Shown: positions 9,301 through 55,380 of the stretch, piece by piece
Layout: each line of letters opens with the position of its first letter
How positions within the stretch are numbered: the first letter of the stretch is position 1
Assembly (NCBI RefSeq): GCF_036365525.1
Contig: NC_090371.1
Span: forward strand, 41,865,200-41,929,199
Direction: 5' to 3'
Source: Heterodontus francisci
Lineage: Eukaryota
Length of the DNA: 64,000 nucleotides
Notes under the pieces: generated by a model
Told to the model about the DNA's origin: nothing
The model's input: the letters and a program-made list of their open reading frames with translations, nothing else
The model's database searches: none
Program-made: the position numbers and the translations under genes

Positions 9301-10704
9301 GGGGCCCCAGCTGTTAGAACCATAGAACAATTAAGGCACAGAAGGAGGTTACTCAGCCCATCGTGTCAATACTGGCTGGAAAAACTAGCCGCCCAATCTA
9401 AACCCATCTTCCAGCACCTGGTCCATAGCCTTGCAGGTTACAGCATTTCAGGTACATGTCCAGGTACCTTTTAAAAGAATTGAGGGTTTCTGCCACCACC
9501 ATTCCTGGCAGCGAATTCCAGACACCCACCATCCTCTGGGTGAAAACGTTTTTCCCTCATGTCCCCTCTAATCTTGTTACCAATCACCTTAAATCTGTGT
9601 CCCCTAGTAAGTGACCTCCCCTGCAGGTGAAACAGGTCTTTCCTATCCATTCTATCTAGGCCCCTCATAATTTTGGACACCTCAATTAAGTCATCACTCA
9701 GCCTCCTCAGTTCCAGGGAAAACAACCCTAGCCTATTCAATTTTTCCTCATATCTGCAACTTTCAAGCCCTGGCAACATTCTTTTAAATCTCCTCTGTAC
9801 TGTCTCCAGAGCAATTATGCCCTTTCTGTAATGTGGTGACCAGAACTGTACACAATACTCCAGCTGTGGCCTAACCTGCATTTTATACAGTTCCAGCATC
9901 ACATCCCTGCTTTTGTATTCTATACCTCGGCCAATAAAGGAAAGCATCCATATGGCATCTTCACCACTCTATCCACCTGTCCTGCCACCATCAGGGATCT
10001 GTGGACATGCACTCCAAGGTATCTCACTTCTACCCCTCTCAATATCCTCCCATTTATTGTGTATTTCCTCGCTTTATTTGTCCTCCCCAAATGCATTAAT
10101 TCACTTCTCTGGATCGAACTCCATTTGCTACTTTCCCGCCCACTCAACCAAACCATGGATATCATTCTGGAGTCTACAGCTATCCTCTTCACTATTAACT
10201 ACATGGCCAATTTTTATGTCATCAGCAAATTTCCCAATCATGCCTCCCACATTTAAGTCCAAATCATTAATATATACCACAAACAGCAAGGGACCCAACA
10301 CTGAGCCCTGTGGAACACCTCTGAAAACAGCTTTCCATTCGCAAAAACATCCATCAACTATTACCCTTTGTTTCCTGTCCCTGAGCCAATTCTGGATTAA
10401 ACCTCCCACATTTCCCTGTATCCCATGAGCTTTCATTTTAGTGACCAGTCTGTCATATGGGACCTGGTCAAATGCCTTACTAAAGTCCATGTAGACCACA
10501 TCCACTGCACTACTCTCATCAATCCTCCCTGTCACTTCCTCAAAAAAACTCAATCAAGTTAGTAAGACATGACCTTCCCTTAACAAATCCATGCTGACTA
10601 TCCCTGATTAATCCGTGCAGTTTATCCTGTCTCAGAATTGATTCTAACAACTTACCCACCAGTCAGACTGACTGGCCTATAATTATTTGGCCTATCCCAC
10701 ACAT

Positions 10705-13700
10705 TTTTTAAAAAAAAATTCATTCATGGGATGCAGGTGTCACTGGCCAGGCCCAGCATTTATTGCCCATCCCTAATTGCCCTTGAGAAGATGGTGGTGA
10801 GCTGCCTTCCTGAACCGCTGCAGTCCATTTGGGGTAGGTTGACCCACAGTGTTGTTAGGAAAGGAGTTCCAGGATTTTGACCCAGCGACAGTGAAGGAAC
10901 GGTGATATAGCACCAAGTCAGGATGGTGTGTGACTTGGAGGGGAACTGGCAGGTGGTGGTGTTCCCATGTATTTGCTGCTCGTCCTTCTAGTTGGTAGAG
11001 GTCGTGGGTTTGGAAGGTGCTGTCTAAGGACCCTTGGTGCATTGCTGCATTGCATCTTGTAGATGGTACACACTGCTGCCACTGTGCGTCAGTGGTGGAG
11101 GGAGTGAATGTTTGTACATGGGGTGCCAATCAAGCAGGCTTCTTTGTCCTGGATGGTGTCGAGCTTCTTGAGTGTTGTTGGAGCTGCACCCATCCAGGCA
11201 AGTGGAGAGTAGTCAATCACACTCCTGACTTGTGCTTTGTTGATGTTGGACAGGCTTTGGGGAGTCAGGAGGCGAGTTACTCGCCACAGGATTCCTAGCC
11301 TCTGACCTGCTCTTGTAGCCAGGGTATTTATATGGCTACTCCAGTTCAGTTTCTGGTCAATGGTAGCCCCTAGGATGTTGATAGTGGGGGATTCAGCGAT
11401 GGTAATGCCGTTGAAGTCAAGGGGAGATGGTTAGATTCTCTCTTGTTGGAGATGGTCATTGCCTGGCACTTGCATGGCGCGAAGGTTACTTGCCACTTAT
11501 CAGCCCAAGCCTGGATATTGTCCAGGTCTTGCTGCATTTCTACACGGACTGCTTCAGTATCTGAGGAGTCACGAATGGTGCTGAACATTATGCAATCATC
11601 AGTGAACATCCCCACTTCTGACCTTATGATTGAAGGAAGGTCATTGATGAAGCAGCTGAAGACGGTTGGGCCGAAGACACGACTCTGAGGAACTCCTGCA
11701 GTGATGTCCTAGAGCTCAGATGATTGACCTCCAACAACCACAACCATCTTCCTTTGCGCTAGGTATGACTCCAGCCAGCAGAGGGTTTTCCCCGATTCCC
11801 ATTGACCTCAGTTTTGCTAGGGCTCCTTGATGCCATACTCGGTCAAATGCTGCCTTGATGTTAAGGGCAGTCACTCTCACCTCACCTCTTGAGTTCAGCT
11901 CTTTTCTCCATGTTTGAACCAAGGCTGTAATGAAGTCAGGAGCTGAGTGGCCCTGGCGGAACCCAAACTGAGCGTCACTGAGCACCTTATTGCTAAGCAA
12001 ACGCCACTTGATGGCACTGTTGATGACACCTTCCATCACTTTACTGATGATTGAGAGTAGGCTGATGGGGCGGTAATTGGCCGGGTCGGACTTGTCCTGC
12101 TTTTTGTGTACAGGATATACCTGGGCAAATTTCCACATTGCAGGATAGATGCCAGTGTTGTAGCTGTACTGGAACAGCTTGGCTAGGGGTGCAGCAAGCT
12201 CTGGAGCACAGGTCTTCAGTACTATTGCCGGAATATCGTCAGGACCCATAGCTTTTGCAGTATCCAGTGCCTTCAGTCGTTTGTTGATATCATGTGGAGT
12301 GAATCGAATTGGCTGAAGTCTGACATCTGTGATGCTGGGGACTTCAGGAGGAGGCTAAGATGGATCATCAACTCGGCACTTCTGGCTGAAGAATGCTGCA
12401 AATGCTTCAGCCTTTTCTTTCGCACTGATGTGCTGGGCTCCCCCATCTTTGAGGATGGGGATATTTGTGGAGCCACCTCCTCCAGTTAGTTGTTTAATTG
12501 TCTACCACCATTCACGGCTGGACGTGGCAAGACTGCACAGCTTAGATCTGATCAGTTGGTTGTGGGATCACTCAGCTCTGTCTATTGCATGCTGCTTATG
12601 CAGTTTGGCATGCAAGTAGTCCTGGGTTGTAGCTTCACCAGGTTGACACCTCATTTTGAGGTATGCCTGGTGCTGCTCCTGGCATGCCCTCCTGCACTCT
12701 TCATTGAACCAGGGTTGGTCTCCTGGCTTGATGATAATGGTAGAGTGGGGGATATGCCAGGTCATGAGGTTACAGATTGTAGTTGAGTACAATTCTGCTG
12801 CTGCTGATGGCCCACAGCGTCTCATGGATGCCCAGTTTTTCATTGCTAGATCTGTTCGAAATCTATCCCATTTAGCACGGTGATAGTGCCACACAACACG
12901 ATGGACGATATCCTCAATGTGAAGGCGGGACTTCGTCTCCACAAGGACTGTGCGGTGGTCACTCCTACCAATACATTCATGGACAGAAACACCTGCGGTA
13001 GGCAGATTAGTGATGACGAGGTCAAGTATGTTTTTTCCCTCGTGTTGGTTCCCCCACCACCTGCCGCAGACGCAGTCTGGCAGCTATGTTCTTTAGGACT
13101 CGGCCAGCTCGGTCAGTAGTGGTGCTGTTCAACATGGAGGAGTACTGAGTCATCAGCTGAGGGAGGGCAGTAGGTGGTAATCAGTAGGAGGTTACCTTGC
13201 CCATGTTTGACCTGATGCCATGAGACTTCATGGGGTCCAGAGTCAATGTTGAGGACTCGCAGGGCAACTCCCTCCCTACTGTATACCACTGTGCCACCAC
13301 CTCTGGTGGGTCTGTCCTGCCGGTGGGACAGGACATACCCGGGGATGGTGATGGCAGTGTCTGGGACATTGGCTGTAAGGTATGATTTCGTGAGTATGGC
13401 TATGTCAGGCTGTTGCTTGACTAGTCTGTGGGACAGCTCTCCCAACTTTGGCACAAGCCCCCACATGTTAGTAAGGAGGACTTTGCAGGGTCAACATGGC
13501 TGGGTTTGCTGTTGTTGTTTCCGATGCCTAGGTCTATGCCGGGCGGTCTGTCTGGTTTCATTTCTTTTTATTGACTTCTTAGCGGTTCAGTACAACTGAG
13601 TGGCTTGTTAGGCCATTTCAGAGGGCATGTAAGAGTTAACCACATTGCTGTAGGTCTGGAGGCGCACGTAGGCCAGACCAGGTAAGGACAGCAGATTTCC

Positions 13701-13903
13701 TTCCCTAAAGGACATTTGTGAACCAGATGGGTTTTTACAACAATCGACAATGGTTTCATGGCTATCATTAGACTAGCTTTTAATTCCAGATTTATTACAT
13801 TCAAATTCCACCTTCTGCTGTGGTGGGATGCGAACCCATGTCCCTTGAGAAATGCCCTGGGTCTCTAGGTTACTAGTCCAGTGATACCAACACGCCATCG
13901 CCT
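10705..13903 (-). mobile_element. Apparently full-length, single-ORF CR1-clade LINE (APE+RT, no ORF1) with a tRNA-derived 5' head; this copy is inactivated
   Basis: APE: KVLLTNMWGL, PDIAILTKS, RQDRPTRGGG (13113-13490). RT: GPDDIP, NYRPISLLSIISKVME, QFGFR, IKAAFDRVWH, GVPQ, MFTDD. Stop at 10773. 5' end has A box TGGCGTGTTGG (13897-13887) and B box GGTTCGCATCC (13836-13826). Imperfect flanking duplication GCCTATCCCACACAT / GCCTACCCCGACAT. Confidence 0.88.
13826..13897 (-). promoter_or_regulatory. Internal type-2 RNA polymerase III promoter (A and B boxes) in the tRNA-like head
   Basis: The three heads (13903, 14003, 43224) give a consensus near TGGCGTAGTGG...CTGGACTAGTAATCCAG...GGGTTCRAATCCCACC, with an anticodon-like stem-loop and a long variable arm. 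Confidence 0.8.
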
Positions 13904-14002
13904 ACCCCGACATCCTTTTGAAAACAATGGTACAACGTCCGCAGACCTCCAATCATCTGGTACCTCCCCTGTATCTAGTGATGATTTGAAGATGATCCTC
14001 AG

Positions 14003-14108
14003 AGGTGGTGGCATAGTGGTAATGTCACTTGACTAGTAATCCAGAGTCCAGATTAATACTCTGGTGACATGGGTTCAAAATCCACCACTGCAGATGAAAT
14101 TTAAATTT
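14003..14108 (+). mobile_element. Isolated tRNA-like head of the same LINE/SINE family, fused to an HE1 SINE
   Basis: GGTGGTGGCATAGTGGTAATGTCACTTGACTAGTAATCCAGAG...GACATGGGTTCAAAATCCACCACTGCAG is homologous to 13903-13800 and 43224-43135. Confidence 0.8.
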
Positions 14109-14432
14109 GGGTGGCACAGTGGTTAGCACTGCTAGCCTCACAGCTCCAGTGACCCAGGTTCAGTTCTGGGTACTGCCTGTGCGGAGTTTGCAAGTTCTCC
14201 CAGTGACCGTGTGGGTTTCTGCCAGGTGCTCTGGTTTCCTCCCACAGCCAAAGACTTGCAGGTTGATAGGTAAATTGGCCATTATAAATTGCCCCTAGTG
14301 TAGGTCGGTGGTAGGAGAATGGTGGGGACGTGGTGGAGAATATGGGATTAATGTGAGATTAGTATAAATGGGTGGTTGTTGGTCGGCACAGACTTGGTGG
14401 GCTGAAGGGCCTATTTCAGTGCTGTATGACTG
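14109..14432 (+). mobile_element. HE1-like V-SINE
   Basis: GGTGGCACAGTGGTTAGCAC head, V-domain, and tail GGGCTGAAGGGCCTATTTCAGTGCTGTATGAC. Confidence 0.92.
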
Positions 14433-19149: not shown

Positions 19150-21738
19150 ATAACACGGGATGTGAGCCTAATCAAAATGAAAAAGGAAGTATTTGTAAGG
19201 GCTGGAAGGCTAGGAACAGATGAAGCACTTGAGGAATATAAAGACAGTAGGAAGGAACTTAAGCAAGGAGTTAGGAGGGCTAAAAGGGGTCATGAAAAGT
19301 CATTGACAAACAGGATTAAGGAAAATCCCAAGGCTTTTTATACGTATATAAAGAGCAAGAGGGTAACCAGGGAAAGGATTGGCCCACTCAAGGACAGAGA
19401 TGGGAATCTATGCGTGGAGCCAGAGGAAATGGGCGAGGTGCTAAGTGAGTACTTTGCATCAGTATTCACCAAGGAGAAGGACTTGGTGGATGATGAGCCT
19501 AGGGAAGGGAGTGCAGATAGTCTCAGTCATCTCATTATCAAAAAGGTGGTGGTGTTGGGTGTCTTGCAAAGCATTAAGGTAGATAAGTCCCCAGGGCCTG
19601 ATGGGATCTACCCTAGAATACTGAGGGAGGCAAGGGAAGAAATTGCTGGGGCCTTGACAGAAATCTTTGCATCCTCATTGGCTACAGGTGAGGTCCCAGA
19701 GGACTGGAGAATAGCCAATGTTGTTCCTTTGTTTAAGAAGGGTGGCAAGGATAATCCAGGAAATTATAGGCCGGTGAGCCTTACGTCAGTGGTAGGGAAA
19801 CTATTAGAGAGGATTCTTCGGGACAGGATTTACTCCCATTTGGAAACAAAGGAACTTATTAGCGAGAGACAGCATGGTTTTGTGAAGGGGAGGTCGTGTC
19901 TTACTAATTTGATTGAGTTTTTTGAGGAAGTGACGAAGATGATTGATGAAGGAAGGGCGGTGGATGTTGTCTATATGGACTTGAGTAAAGCCTTCGACAA
20001 GGTCCCGCATGGCAGACTGGTGCAAAAGGTGAAGTCACGCGGGATCAGAGGTGAGCTGGCAAGATGGATACAGAACTGGTTCAGTCACAGAAGACAGAGG
20101 GTAACAGTGGATGGATGTTTTTCTGAATGGAGGGATGTGACTAGTGGTGTTCCGCAGGGATCAATGCTGGGACCTTTGCTGTTTGTAGTATATATAAATG
20201 ATTTGGAGGAAAATGTAGCTGGCCTGATTAGTAAGTTTGCGGACGACACAAAGGTTGGTGGAGTTGCGGATAGTGATGAGGATTGTCAGAGGATACAGTA
20301 GGATATAGATCAGTTGGAGACTTGGGCGGAGAAATGGCAGATGGAGTTTAATCCGGACAAATGTGAGGTAATGCATTTTGGAGGGTCGAATGCAGGTGGG
20401 AGGTATACAGTAAATGGCAGAACCCTTAAGAGTATTGACAGGCAGAGAGGTCTGGGCGTACAGGTCCACAGGTCACTGAAAGTGGCAACGCAGGTGGATA
20501 AGGTAGTCAAGGTGGCATACGGCATGCTTGCCTTCATCGGTCGGGGCATAGAGTATAAAAATTGGCAAGTCATGTTGCAGCTGTACAGAACCTTAGTTAG
20601 GCCACACTTAGAATATTGCGTGCAATTCTGGTCGCCACACTACCAGAAGGGCGTGGAGGCTTTGGAGAGGGTACAGAGGAGGTTTACCAGGATGCTGCCT
20701 GGTCTGGAGGGCATTAGCTATGAGGAGAGGTTGGAAAAACTCGGATTGTTTGCACTGGAATGACAGAGGTGGAGGGGCGACATGATAGAGGTTTACAAAG
20801 TTATGAGCGGCATGGACAGAGTGGATAGTCAGAAGCTTTTTCCCAGGGTGGAAGAGTCAGTTACTAGGGGACATAGGTTTAAGGTGTGAGGGGAAAAGTT
20901 TAGAGGGGATGTGCGAGGCAAGTTTTTATTTTTTAAAACAGAGGGTGGTGAGTGCTTGGAGCTTGCTGCCAGGGGAGGTGGTGGAAGCAGATACGATAGC
21001 GACGTTTAAGAGACATCTTGACAAATATATGAATAGGAAGGGAATAGAGGGATATTAAATGTGGCCATTTCTTTTGTTCCTAGCACTGTAGAGGAAAACA
21101 GAAGAGTACAAGAAAACCTGTTTGTTTACCCTTCCACAATTTAGAGGTCAATTTTCCCTCCCGTTTTCCAAATTTCCCGTTTGTCTGGCAGTTCAGATCC
21201 CAGACAAGCCCCCAATTGGTTACGGCCACCTGGTGAGGGTGGTTTGCACTGTTCAACTCCCACCTGACTGCAGCAAGTATTTTTTGGTTATGAGGGTATA
21301 ACCCTAACTTGTTTTATTTGTCAAATGAACAGCTGCCTTGTGGGCGTCTCGGGAGAGACCACGGCTAAGGGAGTAAACCCTAACAGAAAATCCGGAGTGG
21401 AACCCCGTAGGCGGTCATGTGTCACCTTTGGCATGTTTCCGGCAGTTCCTGCAGCCATACCGGTGCCAAACGTCGTGCTCTGCACTCCTTTGGACCCCAC
21501 CAGAAAGGCCGAGAGGGGGGTTTTGACGCTTGGGCAACTCTCAACCTCCATACATTCGCCCAGGCATGCGCCATGGAGAGGTCACTCCATAGTTGCCTCA
21601 CAGCGACTGACACCACTGACCACCTCTAGGCGCTTACCCATTGTCTCTCGAGACAAGGAGGCCAAAGAAGAAGAAGAAGAGGGATATGGGCCCCGGAAGT
21701 GCAGAAGGTGTTAGTTTCGGCAGGCATCACGATCAGCA
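19150..21738 (+). mobile_element. Young 5'-truncated CR1 (HER1-like) LINE ORF2, interrupted by 21056-21677
   Basis: ORFs 19162-20301 and 20314-20763 are in the same frame, separated only by a point stop, and contain the full RT (NYRPVSLTS, QHGF, GVPQGS, KFADD). The 3' UTR resumes at 21678. Confidence 0.95.
21056..21677 (+). mobile_element. Non-autonomous bipartite RTE derivative (putative 5' UTR joined to RTE 3' end) with about 270 nt of extra 5' sequence
   Basis: 10-bp TSD AGAGGGATAT (21046-21055 and 21678-21687). The 3' end CCACTGACCACCTCTAGGCGCTTACCCATTGTCTCTCGAGACAAGGAGGCCAAA(GAA)n matches the RTE end at 25890-25940. No RT coding sequence. Confidence 0.8.
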
Positions 21739-23113: not shown

Positions 23114-24000
23114 ACTATGTCATCTAGTGAAGATTGGAAGATTATGGCAAGACCTTCCACTATTTCCACCCCCACTTCCATTAGCAACCAGAGATGAAAG
23201 CCATCCAGACCAGGTGACTTATCTACCCTAAACATAGCCAGCCTTTTCAGTACCTCCTCCCTCAATTTTTACCTTAATCATTGCCTTTACTCTCTCCACT
23301 AACGATATTTCGTCATATTCCTCTTCCTTAGTAAACACCGATACAAAGTATTCTAGCGTTGCCCTGCATCTCTAAGCATTTATTACCCTCTTTGTTACTA
23401 ACAGGCCCACTCCACCTTTTACTACCGACTCACTATTTACATGCCGGTAGAACATTTTTGGGTTCCTTTTACATTGACTGCCAGTCTGTTCTCATATTCT
23501 CTTTGCCAATCTTATTTTCCTCTCCATCTCCTCTCTCAATTTACTGTATTTGGTCTGGTGCGCACTTGGTGAACTCACCTGGACATGCATCTACACCCTC
23601 TTTTTTTGTTTCGTGATCTCCATCTTCCTCATCATCCAAGGAGCCCTGTTTTTGGTTCCCCTACATTTTGCCCATGTTGGAATGTACCTAGCCTGCACCT
23701 GAATCAACTCTTCTTTAAAGATAACCCATTGTTCCATTACAGTTTTCCTGTCAGCCTTTGGTTCCATTTTATCCTGTCTAGATCATCGCATTGAAATTAG
23801 CTCTCTTTCAATCTAGCCATTGCTTTTCCACATTGAGTCTAAACTTTTTGATACGAAGATCACACTTAGCTAAGTGCTCCCCGACAGACAGTCCACTTTG
23901 GCCCATCTCATTCCCCAGCACCAGATCCAGCAATGGCTCCTCTTCAATTAGGTTGAGAACATACTGATCAAGGAAGTTTTCCTGAACACAACCGAGAAAT

Positions 24001-25939
24001 TTCCCCCTCAAATCTAAATCAGGGGAGATAATCACTGACCAACACAAACAAATGGACCGCTGGGTTGAGCACTACCTAGAACTGTACTCCAGGGAGAATG
24101 TTGTCACTGAGACCGCCCTCAATGCAGCCCAGCCTCTACCAGTCATGGATGAGCTGGACATACAGCCAACCAAATCAGAACTCAGTGATGCCATTGATTC
24201 TCTAGCCAGCGGAAAAGCCCCTAGGAAGGACAGCATTATCCCTGAAATAATCAAGAGTGCCAAGCCTGCTATACTCTCAGCACTACATGAACTGCTATGC
24301 CTGTGCTGGGACGAGGGAGCAGTACCTCAGGACATGCGCAATGCCAATATCACCCTCTATAAAAACAAAAGGTGACCGCGGTGACTGCAACAACTACCGT
24401 GGAATCTCCCTGCTCAGCATAGTGGGGAAAGTCTTTGCTCGAGTCGCTCTAAACAGGCTCCAGAAGCTGGCCAAGCGAGTCTACCCTGAGGCACAGTGTG
24501 GCTTTCGTGCAGAGAGATCGACCGTTGACATGCTGTTCTCCCTTCGTCAGATACAGGAGAAATGCCGTGAACAACAGATGCCCCTCTACATTGCTTTCAT
24601 TGATCTCACCAAAGCCTTTGACTTCGTCAGCAGACGTGGTCTCTTCAGACTACTAGAAAAGATTGGATGCCCACCAAAGCTACTAAGTATCATCACCTCA
24701 TTCCATGACAATATGAAAGGCACAATTCAAGATGGTGGCTCCTCATTAGAGCCCTTTCCTATCCTGAGTGGCGTGAAACAGGGCTGTGTTCTCGCACCCA
24801 CACTGAGATTTTCTTCTCCCTGCTGCTTTCACATGCGTTCAAGTGCTCTGAAGAAGGAATTTTCCTCCACACAAGATCAGGGGGCAGGTTGTTCAACCTT
24901 GCCCGTCTAAGAGCGAAGTCCAAAGTACGGAAAGTCCTCATCAGAGAACTCCTCTTTGCTGACGATGCTGCTTTAACATCTCACACTGAAGAATGCCTGC
25001 AGAGTCTCATCGACAGGTTTGCGTCTGCCTGCAATGAATTTGGCCTAACCATCAGCCTCAAGAAAACGAACATCATGGGGCAGGACGTCAGAAATGCTCC
25101 ATCCATCAATATTGGCGACCACGCTCTGGAAGTGGTTCAAGAGTTCACCTACCTAGGCTCAACTATCACCAGTAACCTGTCTCTAGATGCAGAAATCAAC
25201 AAGCGCATGGGAAAGGCTTCCACTGCTATGTCCAGACTGGCCAAGAGAGTGTGGGAAAATGGCGCACAGACACGGAACACAAAGGTCCGAGTGCATCAGG
25301 CTTGTGCCCTCAGTACCTTGCTCTACGGCAACGAAGCCTGGACAACGTATGTCAGCCAAGAGTGACGTCTCAATTCATTCCATCTTCGCTGCCTCCGGAG
25401 AATCCTTGGCATCAGGTGGCAGGACCGTATCTCCAACACAGAAGTCCTCGAGGCGGCCAACATCCCCAGCTTATACACACTACTGAGTCAGCGGCACTTG
25501 AGATGGCTTGGCCATGTGAGCCACATGGAAGATGGCAGGATCCCCAAAGACACATTGTACAGCGAGCTTGCCACTGGTATCAGACCCACCGGCCGTCCAT
25601 GTCTCCGCTTTAAAGACGTCTGCAAACACGACATGAAGTCCTGTGACATTGATCACAAGTTGTGGGAGTCAGTTGCCAGCGTTCGCCAGAGCTGGCGGAC
25701 AGCCATAAAGACGGGGCTAAAGTGTGGCGAGTCGAAGAGACTTAGTAGTTGACAGGAAAAAAGAGAGGTGCAAGGGGAGAGCCAACTGTGTAACAGCCCC
25801 GACAAACAAATTTCTCTGCAGCACCTGTGGAAGAGCCCGTCACTCTAGAATTGGCCTTTATAGCCACTCCAGGCGCTGCTTCACAAACCACTGACCATCT
25901 CCAGGCGCTTATCCATTGTCTCGAGATAAGGAGGCCAAA
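24001..25939 (+). mobile_element. 5'-truncated RTE-clade LINE (RT plus C-terminal C2H2-like finger)
   Basis: NYRGISLLSIVGKVFARV, EAQCGFR, FIDLTKAFD, GVKQGCVLAP, LLFADD, FTYLGS, RWLGHV..MEDGRIPK; GAGAAAT on both flanks (23994-24000 and 25940-25946). Confidence 0.95.
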
Positions 25940-39554: not shown

Positions 39555-40389
39555 ACAATAACTGGCATTTATACAGCACCTATAATGTAGAAAAACATTC
39601 CACTGTTGGAGAAAAATTGGATGACCAGCCAAAAGCAGGAAGTTAGGAATGGTAACCAAAAGCTTGGCCAAAGAGGTGGGTTTAAGGAGGAACTTACAAA
39701 AAAAAAGGTGAAGAGGTGCAAGGAGAACCCAGAGCAGGAGGCCTAGTTGGCTGCAGGAACAACTGCCAATGGTGTGAAGGGAGGGACAAATCACAAGAGG
39801 CCAAAAACAGGAAGAATGAATTTTTGGGGGAAGTGGTTTATAGCACTGAAAATGCTCTGGAGAGAGAAACAAGGTTAACATTGCAGGTCATGATTCTCTG
39901 TTCCTCTCTCCAAAGATGCTACCTAACTTGCTGTGTATTTCCACCATTTTCTGCTTTTAATTAGGAAAAGTCCAGCCTTAGAGGGATTTAAAAATGACTT
40001 TTAAATTTGAGGCACTGTGGAACGGAGTCATTGTAGGGTGAACAAACACAGACTGAGTGGGACTTAGTGTGAGGTAAGATTGAGCAGAGATTTGAATGAG
40101 CTCAAGTTTATGGAAGATGGAAGGCCAGCATTGAAATAGCAGAGTCTGGAGGTGACAAAGTATGGATAAGGGGTTCAGCAGCAGATGGACTGGAGGAAGC
40201 AGATGGCTTTTGTGATAGAAAGGATACGAGGTTGGAAGCTCAGCTTGGTGTCAAATACAATGCTAAGATCGGGAACAGTCTGGTTCTGCCTGAAACGGGC
40301 TGAAGAGGGAGGGGAAGCGTCAGTGGCAGGGGTAGTGCTGAGACTGAAGATGGTGACTTTGCTCTTAATGATTTGCTGGAGGAAATTGT
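39555..40389 (-). mobile_element. Decayed L2-type LINE, interrupted by a Penelope-like hairpin (about 39845-39962); small continuation at 41043-41070
   Basis: ORF 40175-40426 (NFLQ....KVTIF, NQTVPDLSIVFDTKLSFQPRILSITKA) resembles 4135-4330; L2 tail at about 39560-39700. Confidence 0.75.
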
Positions 40390-42830: not shown

Positions 42831-43224
42831 TTTTTAAAAAAAATTCATTAATGGGATGTGGGCATCGCTGGCCAGGCCAACTTTTATTGCCCTTGAGAAG
42901 GTGGCAGTGAGCTGCCAACTGAGTGGCTTGCTAGGCCATTTCAGAGGGCATATAAGAGTCAACCACATTGCTGTGGGTCTGGAGTCACATGTAGGCCAGA
43001 CCAGGTAAGGACAGCAGATTTCCTTCCCTAAAGGACATTAGGGAACCAGATGGGTTTTTACAACAATCAACAATGGTTTCATGGCCATCATTAGAATAGC
43101 TTTTTTTTTTTAAATCCCAGATTTACTAATTGAATTCAAATTCCACCTTCTGCTGTGGTGGGATTTGAACCCATGTCCCCAGAGCAATACCCTGGGTCCA
43201 GTGATAATACCACTACGCCACCGC
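42831..43224 (-). mobile_element. tRNA-headed SINE made of the 5' (about 310 nt) and 3' (about 85 nt) ends of the 10705-13903 LINE
   Basis: 43224-42917 aligns to 13903-13594 and 42916-42843 aligns to 10806-10719. A box TGGCGTAGTGG, B box GGTTCAAATCC. Confidence 0.92.
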
Positions 43225-49840: not shown

Positions 49841-52800
49841 TTTTTTTTAATTTGTTCATGGGATGAGTGTGTCACTGGCTGGGCCAGCATTTATTGCCCA
49901 TCCCTAATTGCCCTTGGTGAGCTGCCTTCTTGAACTACTACAGTCCATGTGGGGTAGGTACACCCACAGTGCCGTTAGGAAGGGAGTTCCAGGATTGTGA
50001 CCCAGCAACAGTGAAGAAATGGTGATAGTTCCAAATCAGGATGGTGTGGGGCTTGGAGGGTAACTTGCAGGTAGTGGTGTTCCTATGCCTCTGCTGCCCT
50101 TGTACATCTAGGTGGCAGACGTCACGGGTTTGGAAGGTGCTGTCTAAAGAGCCTTGGTACGTTGCTGCAGTGCATCTTGTAGATGGTACACACTGCTGCC
50201 ACTGCGCGTCAGTGGAGGAGAGTGTGAATTTATGTGGATGGGGTGCTAATAGGAACATACGAAGATAGGAACAGGAGTAGGCCATTCAACCCCTCGAGCC
50301 TGTCCCGCAGCCCAACTCCATATACCTGCCTTTGGCCCATACCCCTGAATATCTTTGCTTAACAATAACCTAAGACTTAAAATTAACAACCGTTCTAGCT
50401 TCAACTGCTGTTTGTGGGAGAGAGTTCCAAATCTCTACCACCCTTTGCGAGAAGTGCTTCCTAACATCTCTCCTGAACGGTCTGGTCTTAATTTTTAGAC
50501 ACTGCCCCCTAGTTTTAGAATCTCCAAGCAGTGGAAATAGCTTATCTTCATCTAGCCTGTCTTTTCCTGTTAATATCTTGAAGACTTCGATCAGATCACC
50601 CATTAACCTTCTAAATTCTAGCGAAAACAAGCCTAATTTGTTTAATGTCTCCTCGTAACTTAACCCCTGTAGTCCAGGTATCATTCTTGTAAACCTACAT
50701 TGCACTCCCTCCAAGGCCAAACTATCCTTCCTAAGGTGTGGTGCCCAGAACTGCTCACAGTACTCTAATTGGGGTCTAACCAGGGTTTTGTACAGCTGCA
50801 GCATAACCTCTGTCTTTATACTCCAATCCTTTAGATATAAAGGCTAGCATTCCATTAGCCTTTTTGATTATTTTCTGCACTTGCTCGCAGCATTTTAAAG
50901 ATCTATGCACCTGAACCCCCAAGTCTCTTTGGACATCCACTATACTTAACCTCTTCCCATTTAGAAAGTACCCTACTCTATCCTTTTTTGGTCCAAAATG
51001 GATAATCTCACACTTGCCCGCATTGAAATCCATCCGCCACAGTTTTGCCCACTCACCTAGTCTGTCAATATCTCTTTGCAATTTTATGCTATTATCTAGA
51101 ATGTCTACAATGCCGCCTAACTTTGTATCAGCAAATTTGGATATATGACTTACTAGGCCATCATCCAAGTCGTTAATGAATAATGTGAATAATTGAGGCC
51201 CCAACACAGATCCCTGTGGGACACCACTAGTCACATTCTGCCAATTGGAATACTTAGCCATTATCCCCACTCTGTCACCTACCACTCAACCAACTTCCTT
51301 ACCATGTCAATAATTTGCCCTCAACTCCATGGGCTTCGACCTTAATTAACAGTCTCTTGTGTGGGACTTTATCAAATGCCTTCTGGAAGTCCATATAATT
51401 AACATCCATAGAATTCCCCTGTCCACTACCTTAGTCACCTCATTAAATTTTTTTGAAGAGATTTGTCAGACATGACCTTCCAGTTCCAATCCATGCTGGC
51501 TGTCCCTGATCAATTGAAATTTTTCTAAGTGTTCAGTCACCCTATCCTCGATTATAGATTCCAGCAACTTGTCCACCACAAATGTTAGTCGAACTGGTCT
51601 GTAATTTCCTTGGTTCCCCCCTTCACCCTTAAAAAGCAGAATGACATGTGCAACTTTCCAATCCAGAGGGACCACTCCTGAATCTAGGGAACTCTGAAAG
51701 ACTATAGTTAAGGCATCTACAATGTGCTCCCCTACTTCCTTTAACACCCTCGGATGGAAACCATCAGGTCCTGGAGATTTCTCACTCTTTAGTTCCATTA
51801 ATTTCCTTATGACTGATGTTTTACTTAGCTTAATTATATTAAGTCCCTGTCCCCCATCAGCTATAATTTTTTCAGGACTTCCGGCAAGTTATCCTCCTTT
51901 TCAACTGTATATACTGAAGAAAAGTAATTGTTCAATATGTCTGCCATTTCCCCATTATCAACGACAATATTTCCAGTTTCAGCTTTTAGTGGGCCTACAT
52001 TGCTCTTGGCCACCCGCTTTCCCCTTATGCAACTATAAAATTTCTTCTTATTGATTTTGATGTCCCTTGCAAGTTTCCTTTCATAATCTCTTAGTAGCTC
52101 TTATAATCTGCTTTGACACCCTTTGCTGGTCTTTGTATCGATCCCATTCAGCTGGATCTGTGCTGCGCTTTGCATTTTTCTGAGCCCTTTCTTGTTGTTT
52201 TATGCTATCCCTAATCTCTTTAGTTGTCCAAGGCTGTTTGTGAAGTGGAGCTTTTTCCTCTCTGGTATATACTCGCTCTGTATTTCGTTAAATGTTTCTT
52301 TAAATATTCTCCACTGTGCTTCAGTCGTTTGACCCATTAACAGATCTACCCAGATACCGTGGACAGTCTGTCTTATCCAGTAAAGTCAGCCTTACCAAAG
52401 TCCAAAATTCTAGTAGCTGATTCCTGCTTTTCACTTTCAAACGCTACCTTGAATTCAATCATGTTGTGATCACTATTTGATAAATGTTCACGAACAGTTA
52501 GGCTACTAATTAAATTTGGCTCATTACTCATAACTAAATCTAATATTGCCTGTCCCCTTGTTACATCTAGGACATATTGCTGTAGGAAACTATCCCGGAC
52601 ACATTCCAGAAATTCACCACCTTTCTGACAGGTGCTAGTCTGCCTCTCCCAGTGGGTAAGTTAAAATCCCCCATTAATACTACTCTGCCTTGGTTACACA
52701 CTTGCCTAATTTGTGCATTTAACACCTCAGAACTGCTACCGGGGGTCTATACACAACACCTATTACAGTTTTAGATCCTTTTCTGTTCCTCAATTCCACC

Positions 52801-55015
52801 CATAAGGTCTCCACTGGATGCTTTCCCCTCATTATATCCTCCCTCACCAATGAGGTGATATTATTTCTAATCAGTAAGGCTACTCCACCCCCTCTGCCAT
52901 TTTCCCTGTCCCTCCTGTAAACTTTATAACCGGGTATATTTAGTTCCCACTCCCGACCGTCCTGCAGCCATGTCTCTGCAATGGCCACATCATAATCTTC
53001 CATTTGAATTTGCACCTGCAGCTCATCTAGTTTATTCCTTACACTCAGTGCATCTGCATATAGAACACTTATTTGGGCTATACACTCTAACCTGTCCCTC
53101 AGCACTGATGCTTTATTCACTGCTTATCAGTTCTCTCTTCTGGTTTAACCAGTATACTTCTTGCAGTTTGATAACTATCAGCCTCACCACTAACCTGCAT
53201 TCTTACCTTCTCCTTTAGCTTCCTGTTTTTCCATGCAACTGAACCCCGCCCCCCACTATTTAGTTTAAAGCCCAATCTACAGCCCTAGTTATGCAATTCG
53301 CCAGGACTCTGGTCCCAGCAGGATTCAGGTGGAGCCCGTCCCGTCGGAACAGCTCCCTCCTTCCCCAGTACTGGTGCCAATGTCCCACGAATTCAAGCCC
53401 ACTTCTCCCACACCAATCTTTGAGCCATGCATTTACCTCTAATCTTATTGACCCTTTTCCAATTTGCTCGTGGCTCAGGTAGTAATCCGGAGATTACCAC
53501 CTTTTTGGTTCTGCTTTTTATTTTAGCCCCTAGCTGCTCATATTCCCTCAGCAGAACCTCTAACCTCGTTCTACCTATATAGTTGGTACCTACGTGGACC
53601 ACGGCAACTGGATCTTTCCCCTTCCTGGACTCCAAGTTCCTCTGCAGCCCAGATGAGATATCCCGAACCCTGGCACCAGGTAGGTATGAGAGCCTTCGGG
53701 ACTCTCGATCCTGGCCACAGAGAACAGTGTCTATGCCCTTAACTATACTATCCCCGATTACGACTACATCTCTTTTCTCCCCCCACTTGAATGGCTCCCT
53801 GTACCACGGTGCTGTCGTCAGTTTGCTCATCCTCCCTACAGTCCCTGCTCTCGTCCACACACAGAGCAAGAACCTTGAACCTGTCTGACAAGGACAATGG
53901 CTGAGGCTCCTGCAGCACTACCTCAGAGATCCCTCTACCTGCCTCAGTCACACTCTCCTGTCCCTGAGCACTGGCCGAATTCACAGCAGTTAATCTAAGG
54001 GGTGTGACTGCCTCCTGAAACACAGCATCCAGTTAACTCTCCCCTCCCTGATGTGTTGCTGTGTCCGAAGCTCAGACTCCAGCTCATCAACTCTGAGCCA
54101 GAGTTCCTCGAACAGCCAACACTTGCTACAGAGGTATTCACCAGGAACCACGATGGGGTCCACCAGCTCCCACATCATGCAGGTACAACACATCACCTGG
54201 CCCTGCAGCTCTACTTTATATAATTAGATTTTAAATTTGTTATTTAAATTTCCGAATGTTTTTTTTTTAAAAAACCACTTTAGTCTATATACTTATAAAT
54301 CAATCAAGTCTTACTCTATGTTGATTAAATTACCTGAATACTGACCCCAGCTGCATTCTGTTTCCCTACTCTCACTGTTCAATGTGATGGGCTGCTTTGT
54401 TCTGGATAGCGTCGAGCTTAGAGTGTTGTTGGAGCTGCACCCATCCAGGCCAGTGGAGACGATTCCATCACATTCCTGACTTATGCCTTGTAGATGGTGG
54501 ACAGGCTTTGGGGAGTCAGGTGGTGAGTTACTCGCCACAGGATTCCTAGCCTCTGACCTGCTCTTGTAACCACAGTATTTATATGGCTGGTCCAGTTCAG
54601 TTCAGTTTCTGGTTAATGGCAAGCCCCAGGATGTTGATAGTGGGGGATTCAGCAATCACAATGCCATTGAATGCCAAGGAGAGATGGTTAGATTCTCTCG
54701 TTGGAGATGGTCATTGCCTGGCACTTGCGTGGCGTGAATGTTACTTGCCACTTATCAGCCCAAGCCTGGATATTGTCCAGGTCTTGCTGCATTTCTACAC
54801 AGACTGCTTCAGTATGAGAAGTTACGAATGGTGAATATTGTGCAATCAGCAGCGAACATCCCCACTTCTGACCTTATGATTGAAGGAAGGTCATTGATGA
54901 AGCAGCTGAAGATGGTTGGGCCTAGGACACTACCCTGAGGAACTCCTGCAGTGATGTCCTGGAGCGGAGATGCTTGACCTCCAACAACCACAACCATCTT
55001 CCTTTGTGCTAGGTG
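49841..55015 (-). mobile_element. Second, 5'-truncated copy of the tRNA-headed LINE family (own sequence 49841-50249 and about 54388-55015), split by a full-length CR1
   Basis: 49850-50249 aligns to 10719-11130 and 54388-55015 aligns to 11135-11770 (GVPQGSVLGPTIFSCFINDLPSIIRSEVGMFAADC). Confidence 0.9.
50250..54385 (-). mobile_element. Essentially full-length decayed CR1 LINE: 5' UTR, ORF1 (zinc finger/leucine zipper plus SGNH esterase), ORF2 (APE+RT)
   Basis: CCTCMMW...CSKC..(L-x6)n at 53990-54196; GDSIVKG, PGARV.D, HVGTN, ISGLLP at 53393-53869; IAETWL, GGGVALLI, VYRPP at 52719-53120; RT at 50370-51798. Confidence 0.93.
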
Positions 55016-55380
55016 AGACTACATTGTGGCGTATCAACAAAATCACAAGTAATTTTTTAGTTGAAAATACTTAAACAAAATTCCCTTGTATGGGTATGTC
55101 TCAAATTCTAATTTTAAACCTCACCACAAATTTGACAGGGAAGAATATTGTGAAGAGGGCAACTGATTTTGGTATTTTTATTTCACTGCTTACAAACAAA
55201 TCAAGTAAGCTTGAATGTCAGTGCTATTCTGTCGGAGAATGCCGGCACAGATATGATTGGCCAAGTGGCCTCTTTCTGTGCCATAAACATTTTTTGATTC
55301 TATTAACCAAAGCTCTGCTTTTCAATTTGTAATGGTGAAGGCACCTTATAACTGAAGCTGGATCAGTGCTAGGTTGGTCT

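Follow-up and report, generated by a model that had tools for sequence, protein, structure and literature searches.

The 64,000-nucleotide stretch of DNA analyzed here (the window) belongs to a shark-like genome and carries, at 10718-13908 on the minus strand, a decayed full-length copy of an abundant family of long interspersed elements (LINEs), about 3.28 kb long, which begin with a tRNA-like head and contain a single open reading frame (ORF). The window copy aligns in two pieces, at 92-93% identity, to a natural full-length copy of the family (L191), and it differs by 4.2% from the family column majority. Its tRNA-like head (13815..13908, minus strand, as are all parts of the copy) holds a decayed A box (13887..13897) and a B box with one mismatch (13826..13836), and ARAGORN called no tRNA in it. 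The head is followed by a body of the type found in short interspersed elements (SINEs), common to a short SINE form (13591..13814), for which the layout suggests the label Deu domain; by a mini-frame of six codons with two ATGs, in frame with the long ORF and closed by a stop (13608..13628); by the remains of a single endonuclease and reverse transcriptase (RT) frame (10773..13607), in which RVT_1 was matched; and by a 3' tail (10704..10772) with AATAAA at 10764-10759. The tail ends in nine T and then six A at 10718-10704, just beyond the boundary drawn in a preliminary description of this DNA. The window copy is dead: 85 bp are missing near 13124 and 2 bp from the RT region near 11793, and there are additional stops.

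That description had reported that the plus strand lacks AAAA from 10719 to 13903, in other words that the element's sense strand lacks runs of four or more T (T4), and this was borne out, with no run of four or more A occurring from 10719 to 13920. The gap of 3,202 bp is the longest in the window (the next longest being 1,602 bp), and none of 936 overlapping 3.2-kb stretch-by-strand tests between window positions 14,000 and 64,000 was without such a run. Its counts also hold, as 10719-13903 contains 13 plus-strand runs of four or more T, equivalent to the roughly 13 sense-strand A runs claimed, and the CR1 control at 19150-21055 contains 8 sense-strand T4 runs, at least 7 having been claimed. 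The second longest T4-free gap, over 1.6 kb, falls in the 5' part of another CR1 (52663-54269, minus strand). Sense-strand T content, put at about 0.22, measures 676/3185, or 0.212. The chance expectation of about six T4 runs was set too high, because the protein and its codon usage must be held fixed: base composition gives 5.1 runs (probability of none 0.006), and codon nulls give 1.7-3.1, the lowest figure coming from a synonymous-codon shuffle of the window copy's 690 aligned codons (probability of none 0.15). Dinucleotide and trinucleotide nulls expect 2.2 and 1.05 runs (probability of none 0.11 and 0.34), and soak up part of the signal because TT itself is under-represented (0.73).

To place this copy in its family, four DNA searches were made of its own 6.0-Gb genome, with the best 40 candidates scored each time, and removal of duplicates left 127 aligned pieces, of which 112 are young (at least 89% identical to L191), 13 are older (below 87%) and 2 are intermediate and were left out. 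Two DNA searches seeded with older fragments recovered mostly the young family. Young copies differ from the column majority by about 3%; family copies have varied 5' starts and a shared tail, and contig depth climbs about tenfold toward the 3' end. Of the 29 other loci of the first search, 20 reach the head, and when the head alone served as the query, 26 of 30 loci continue into the frame, both fractions being biased by the ranked search; the remaining four head-seeded loci jump to the tail at four different joints. Among the 73 young units in which the frame start is present, 61 extend to the head, and no alternative 5' end is shared among 25 pieces that start inside the frame. Candidate target-site duplications of 6-7 nt flank 3 of 18 full-length copies, with none at the other 15. 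Seven near-identical loci (L182-L188) hold the same inserted copy on several contigs, through segmental or tandem duplication, and were counted once. Among named proteins, shark sequences match best (88% and 66%), and the stretch is present in sequencing-run contigs of six organism codes plus a metagenome. The joint between body and frame is bridged by one contig, from a run of organism B, and an exact 21-nt body probe had no match in viral and prokaryote genome contigs.

The avoidance seen in the window copy is a family-wide trait. In the column-majority letters of 52 copies there are 478 single T, 82 TT, 8 TTT and no longer T run, alongside 14 A, 12 C and 8 G runs of at least four. The 112 young pieces (244 kb) contain 31 sense-strand T4 runs vs 1,080 runs of four A; 25 of 36 near-full-length pieces are T4-free, and the commonest T4 stems from CpG decay at one site (6 of 20 cases). 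Older headed copies (85%) are T4-poor too, with none in 3110 bp and one in 2912 bp. Among family column-majority codons, zero T4 runs compare with 2.1 under synonymous permutation (P 0.08), and with 3.1 when codons with T in second position take background third-base usage (P 0.029). The refuting checks that the preliminary description had proposed were carried out, and its claim survived them. The absence of T4 had been offered as support, independent of the head, for RNA polymerase III (Pol III) transcription; since it reaches only P 0.03-0.08, that support is less than was claimed, and it is the avoidance of TTT and of non-canonical terminators that provides real support.

Runs of three or more T occur 4 times in the 975-codon frame vs 12.9 expected (P<0.0002; 0 of 5,000 shuffles), and TTT is the lowest of the 64 3-mers, at 0.26 of expected, below the CpG words. 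General homopolymer avoidance was rejected as an explanation, as A, C and G runs of 3-4 match the codon null, and avoidance of splice sites or poly(A) signals was rejected likewise, with acceptor- and donor-like words, pyrimidine tracts and AATAAA not depleted. At synonymous C/T sites of the family whose next base is not G, T is the choice in 81 of 249 cases where it stays single, in 28 of 122 where it makes TT and in 1 of 35 where it makes TTT or longer; where TTT or longer would form, the comparators use T at 39 of 66 (CR1), 17 of 62 (RTE) and 3605 of 5678 (pooled relatives) sites. Moreover, T3VT, TVT3, T2VT2 and related words were tested in vitro as human Pol III terminators and most were partly active, isolated T3 and T2GT2 being inactive, according to the available part of PMC3141230. 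The motifs listed there as active are absent from the family frame (0 vs 5.9 expected, P=0.001; antisense 27 vs 28), in a test that was not fully blind, the panel having been fixed after word counts had been seen; the inactive T2GT2 is tolerated (1 vs 0.9). Unchanged natural frames agree, with 2 active motifs vs 6.2 in L191 (P 0.014) and 1 vs 4.4 in L020 (P 0.018). A common variant that seemed to create a terminator was discarded, because it is linked to a neighboring change and makes none (1 of 90). The sense strand thus lacks the internal terminators that would break up a Pol III unit, both as T4 in majority columns and as active motifs in the frame. An ORF purged of terminators for Pol III, as the preliminary description proposed, would be expected to avoid TTT and non-canonical terminators in this way.

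Comparison elements show how far this pattern extends. Twenty CR1 copies have 197 T4 runs vs 226.5 expected. The RTE family (L051-L070), represented in the window by an ordinary copy at 23986-25752 (plus strand) with a non-tRNA 5' untranslated region (UTR) of about 560 nt, equals the tRNA-headed family in T content, lacks a tRNA head and carries, in its 5' UTR, a T4 common to its copies; its 20 copies have 54 T4 runs vs 80 expected, so that a degree of T-cluster avoidance is not peculiar to elements with a Pol III head. An L2-like control (40000-40345) was dropped as too decayed, with only short matches of 68-80%. A metagenome scan supplied 80 distant relatives, of which 9 were dropped for frames below 350 aa and 15 for the set of at least 500 aa. 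Only 1 of the 71 has no T4, in a frame of only 372 aa, and the 65 of at least 500 aa have a median observed/expected ratio of 0.99 for active motifs, with a lowest density of 2.56 per kb. A FastTree phylogeny of 52 RT regions, in which inner nodes are unsupported and named reference elements are not included, separates the family from the local CR1 and RTE and puts it in a group rich in invertebrate sequences (0.907). The only distant relative with DNA in the same broad RT group (L096) has no head, and its frame contains 20 T4 runs, as its null expects. Phenylalanine (Phe) makes up 1.8% of the family protein vs a median of 4.2% in 129 homologues of at least 800 aa. The closest invertebrate or unnamed protein relatives are P0012, P0013, P0016 and P0185, and all of these except P0013 are noted as Phe-poor. 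The clusters of full-length P0012 and P0013 lie on 3.6-4.0-kb contigs with one frame of 960-980 aa, and may likewise be short single-frame elements.

The head has the signature of a tRNA-derived Pol III promoter. Among 44 headed copies, the A box is exact in 35 and the B box in 36 (by pattern match), and ARAGORN calls tRNAs, mostly Thr, in 24 at default and in all 44 at relaxed settings. Rfam returned only a sub-threshold tRNA-Sec match to the head (E 0.13), and its folding (z -1.8) is not clearly unusual. The 5' end of these copies is fixed at two or three purines, 10-11 nt 5' of the A box; positions -1 and -2 are G in 39 of 44, and sequence is random from -4. These insertion ends suggest a Pol III-type start shortly 5' of the A box.

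A tRNA-related head with A and B boxes is the mark of a tRNA-derived SINE, and shortness and lack of coding capacity, which complete the definition, are found in the short form and not in the 3.3-kb form with its selected 975-codon frame. The short form, present in the window at 42845..43224 (minus strand), joins head and body directly to the 3' tail, and from its layout it is probably SacSINE1. In short copies the body stretch runs straight into the tail, joints of this kind were found in contigs of all four sequencing runs examined, and internally deleted forms with varied joints are common. At the common body-tail joint of the SINE, the long form has the whole body and none of the tail, a position that is to be expected if the SINE arose by deletion, and that would be fortuitous had the LINE captured a SINE. 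As a deletion product the SINE would be very old, because head, Deu domain and tail are shared with LmeSINE1, as far as the accessible text of PMC5499810 describes it.

The frame itself runs through 975 column-majority codons without a stop. Pfam matched Exo_endo_phos (PF03372), Exo_endo_phos_2 (PF14529) and RVT_1 (PF00078) in the 826-aa natural frame of L191, and this order of apurinic/apyrimidinic (APE) endonuclease and RT in one frame is that of an APE-type retrotransposon without long terminal repeats. The ratio of nonsynonymous to synonymous changes (pN/pS) is 0.91 for non-CpG changes private to one copy, 0.18 for those shared by at least 10% of copies (23 nonsynonymous, 40 synonymous) and 0.12 for changes shared among older pieces (16 nonsynonymous, 42 synonymous); the low ratios of shared changes indicate that master lineages kept the protein. 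The frame has therefore been under purifying selection in lineages that carry the head. Its two mini-frame ATGs lie at columns 282 and 294 and the mini-frame stop at column 300, in frame with the long ORF; that stop has the usual T as its first base in 68 of 77 young units but G in 6 others and C in a further 3, and G or C there would open the long frame from the upstream ATGs. Translation might proceed by non-AUG initiation or by passage of the mini-frame stop.

A 2-bp deletion in the RT region (window 11784-11802, minus strand; L001-L030, L080, L087) divides the family into 31 deleted and 33 intact pieces, and is the only diagnostic difference between them. Of the 31 deleted pieces, 29 came from the window-seeded search, and searches not seeded across the site yielded 2 deleted and 33 intact pieces, so that the frameshifted form is otherwise the less common one. 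Either this is a 3.3-kb non-autonomous form that is copied in trans, or the slip has occurred repeatedly.

The tail does not hold the 3' T-run terminator expected of a Pol III unit. In 53 long-form tails, one T precedes the A run in 26, and T4 or more is present in 11, the modal family tail being one T followed by 8-12 A. These tails, and those of the SINE form, follow a T(n)A(m) pattern with a roughly constant total length in longer tails. A fixed 3' terminator was rejected, the near-constant length of T plus A fitting later A-to-T change, by which the T/A boundary apparently moves after insertion. SINEs that end transcription in flanking DNA also have no terminator of their own.

We favor, with moderate confidence, the reading that the family is a self-mobilizing LINE transcribed by Pol III and that the local SINE is its short form. 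Its architecture, fixed 5' end, avoidance of T clusters and purifying selection are properties of the copies themselves, and the head, the fixed start and a strand-limited absence of terminator words only partly seen in controls would, as sequence features, support Pol III. In such a scheme, TFIIIC would bind the A and B boxes, Pol III would start about 10-11 nt 5' of the A box and read 3.3 kb, and transcription would end, as in SINEs, at the first T run in the flanking DNA. Master copies would have been transcribed end to end, and selection would have removed stopping sites. The uncapped RNA would be translated from a non-AUG start or past the mini-frame stop, the protein would prime reverse transcription at the shared 3' tail, and the short SINE and the frameshifted long form would be carried in trans. 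In the part of PMC8223928 available, type 2 Pol III promoters yield translated reporter RNA, from a reporter far shorter than 3.3 kb, and removal of one TTTT about doubled reporter activity. A bolder version, which we regard as possible though short of an even chance, is that the family is an autonomous SINE: a natural 3.3-kb protein-coding vertebrate Pol III gene, rewritten in both its codons and its amino acids so as to avoid terminators, translated through its Deu-type body with neither cap nor AUG, and the source, by internal deletion, of shark Deu-SINEs.

Several observations weigh against transcription by Pol III. The absence of T4 is weak evidence when taken alone (P 0.03-0.15 under codon nulls), and the controls also fall below their nulls, slightly in CR1 (18-24 active motifs vs 23-27) and further in RTE (7-10 vs 11-15, P 0.004-0.38 over five frames; 24 T-dense windows vs 47.6). 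No close head-less sister with DNA was found, the comparators being at most 42% identical in the RT region. Low Phe occurs in close protein relatives as well (amphioxus 1.5%, others 2.3-2.6%), which either weakens the amino-acid argument or suggests that the headed clade is wider. In 42 of 67 units a non-canonical motif stands in the head, between the boxes; no templated family-wide 3' terminator was found in the 53 long-form tails; and the first in-frame ATG is at codon 285, with none earlier. T-gaining changes make up 1 of 19 shared and 31 of 644 private changes, a comparison without power. Finally, ranked searches over-sample full-length copies, and the copies represent one ancestral event rather than independent trials.

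A rival account is that the LINE captured a SINE as its 5' end and depends on Pol II, which would start either at the head or at promoters of the host. The scarcity of U clusters would then be a stronger form of a pressure that acts on LINE RNA in general (through U-rich binding proteins or decay), together with C-ending codons and a Phe-poor protein. The partial depletion of RTE without a tRNA head, the Phe-poor close relatives and the preference for C-ending codons throughout the frame favor this account, a capped mRNA would ease the translation problem, and the available text of PMC8223928 raises Pol II use of Pol III promoters as a possibility. We nevertheless think it unlikely: the depletion is total and confined to T runs of at least three, sparing pyrimidine tracts and splice and poly(A) words, the family 5' end lies at the Pol III start distance, and L096, the sole in-clade relative with DNA, has as many T4 runs as expected. 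Chance, whereby a T-poor LINE with C-ending codons merely happens to be T4-free, can draw on the probabilities for T4 alone (0.08 for the family, 0.15 for the window copy) and on the dinucleotide null (0.11), but it is largely refuted by the depletion of TTT and of the terminator panel (P≤0.001 under nulls that fix protein and codon usage), which is strand-specific and makes TTT the rarest 3-mer relative to expectation; we consider it very improbable.

Alternatively, labor may be split, with Pol III making the RNA template, a 3.3-kb giant SINE, and the protein supplied in trans by Pol II transcription, either of the same loci or of unseen master loci without the head. The missing start codon is in keeping with this, as are the frameshifted form in at least 31 long copies and the common internally deleted forms with varied joints, which imply efficient mobilization in trans. 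Against it stand purifying selection on shared variants in lineages that carry the head, the lack of an alternative 5' end among the pieces that start inside the frame, and the minority status of the frameshifted form in searches not seeded across the site, and it appears to us a remoter prospect than capture, if less so than chance.

Elsewhere in the window there are two lesser remnants of the family, both on the minus strand: a second, 5'-truncated fragment at 54389..55023 (90% identical to L191) and an older 3' fragment at 49855..50250 (83%). Just 5' of the LINE copy, two other SINEs lie within a CR1 (14002-14430); in one of them ARAGORN calls a tRNA-Thr(AGT), and it is 79% like the family head over 110 nt. 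Pieces of the LINE frame are also contained in shark gene models annotated as aldo-keto reductase, SVEP1-like and GPR139 (P0003, P0007 and P0010), where they are probably annotation artefacts.

On the usual view Pol II transcribes LINEs, and SINEs are passengers of Pol III that encode no protein; Pol III normally makes only short non-coding RNAs. If the family is what we propose, a Pol III head on a selected coding frame that bears a codon-level scar of read-through blurs the line between LINE and SINE, and offers a natural test case for the translation of a long, uncapped Pol III RNA. It also bears on the origin and conservation of SINE bodies such as Deu, and if the family is an autonomous SINE, the conserved Deu domain gains a role as a LINE 5' element. 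Neither a coding LINE with a tRNA head nor a Pol III-transcribed LINE is described in the literature covered, as far as its available text goes (PMC5786205, PMC10468316, PMC7140322, PMC4120745 and PMC4114694 included) and with subscription papers largely outside that coverage.

Among known systems, the short form most resembles SacSINE1 and LmeSINE1 (PMC5499810; PMC3747384, each in its available part), which are Deu-SINEs with a tRNA head, found in sharks, chimaera and coelacanth. By published layout they have in common with it a tRNA-like head that bears A and B boxes, a body that is conserved and a tail derived from a LINE. The long form differs in placing about 2.9 kb of selected endonuclease/RT frame between body and tail, SacSINE1 being shorter than 500 bp and non-coding in what is available of PMC5499810. 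The tail partners named in the same partly available sources are Jockey-group LINEs, L2-2_CM in PMC5499810 and a CR1-4_DR-like element in a table of PMC3747384. Like these donors, the family has an APE endonuclease and RT frame and shares its 3' tail with a SINE, and single-ORF L2 members exist, according to the accessible text of PMC7140322; unlike them, as compared by description, it has no ORF1 and no ordinary 5' UTR, and it combines a tRNA/SINE head with a sense strand free of T clusters. The bipartite LINE-derived SINEs Bov-tA and CoeSINE4, with a tRNA head, a LINE 5' part and a LINE tail (PMC5786205, in part), resemble it in carrying a small-RNA head on LINE-derived parts and in short forms by internal deletion. 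There, however, only the non-autonomous element is headed and the LINE is held to be Pol II-transcribed, whereas here the coding element is headed. Chimeric retrocopies of the U6-L1 type are cited in the available part of PMC5499810. They too join a Pol III RNA to a LINE body, by template switching. Such chimeras are typically one-off products with varied joints. In contrast, the family has one joint common to dozens of copies and to older lineages. The R2 element is a LINE that does not rely on Pol II for its transcription, and its uncapped RNA is translated without an AUG; it is co-transcribed by Pol I inside ribosomal DNA (rDNA) and uses a restriction-like endonuclease. A polymerase other than Pol II and uncapped, AUG-less translation are what we propose here as well, Pol I, rDNA and the restriction-like endonuclease remaining R2's alone. 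The family is thus LINE-like in its coding and, on a reading of Pol III transcription that we hold to be somewhat better than even, SINE-like in its transcription.

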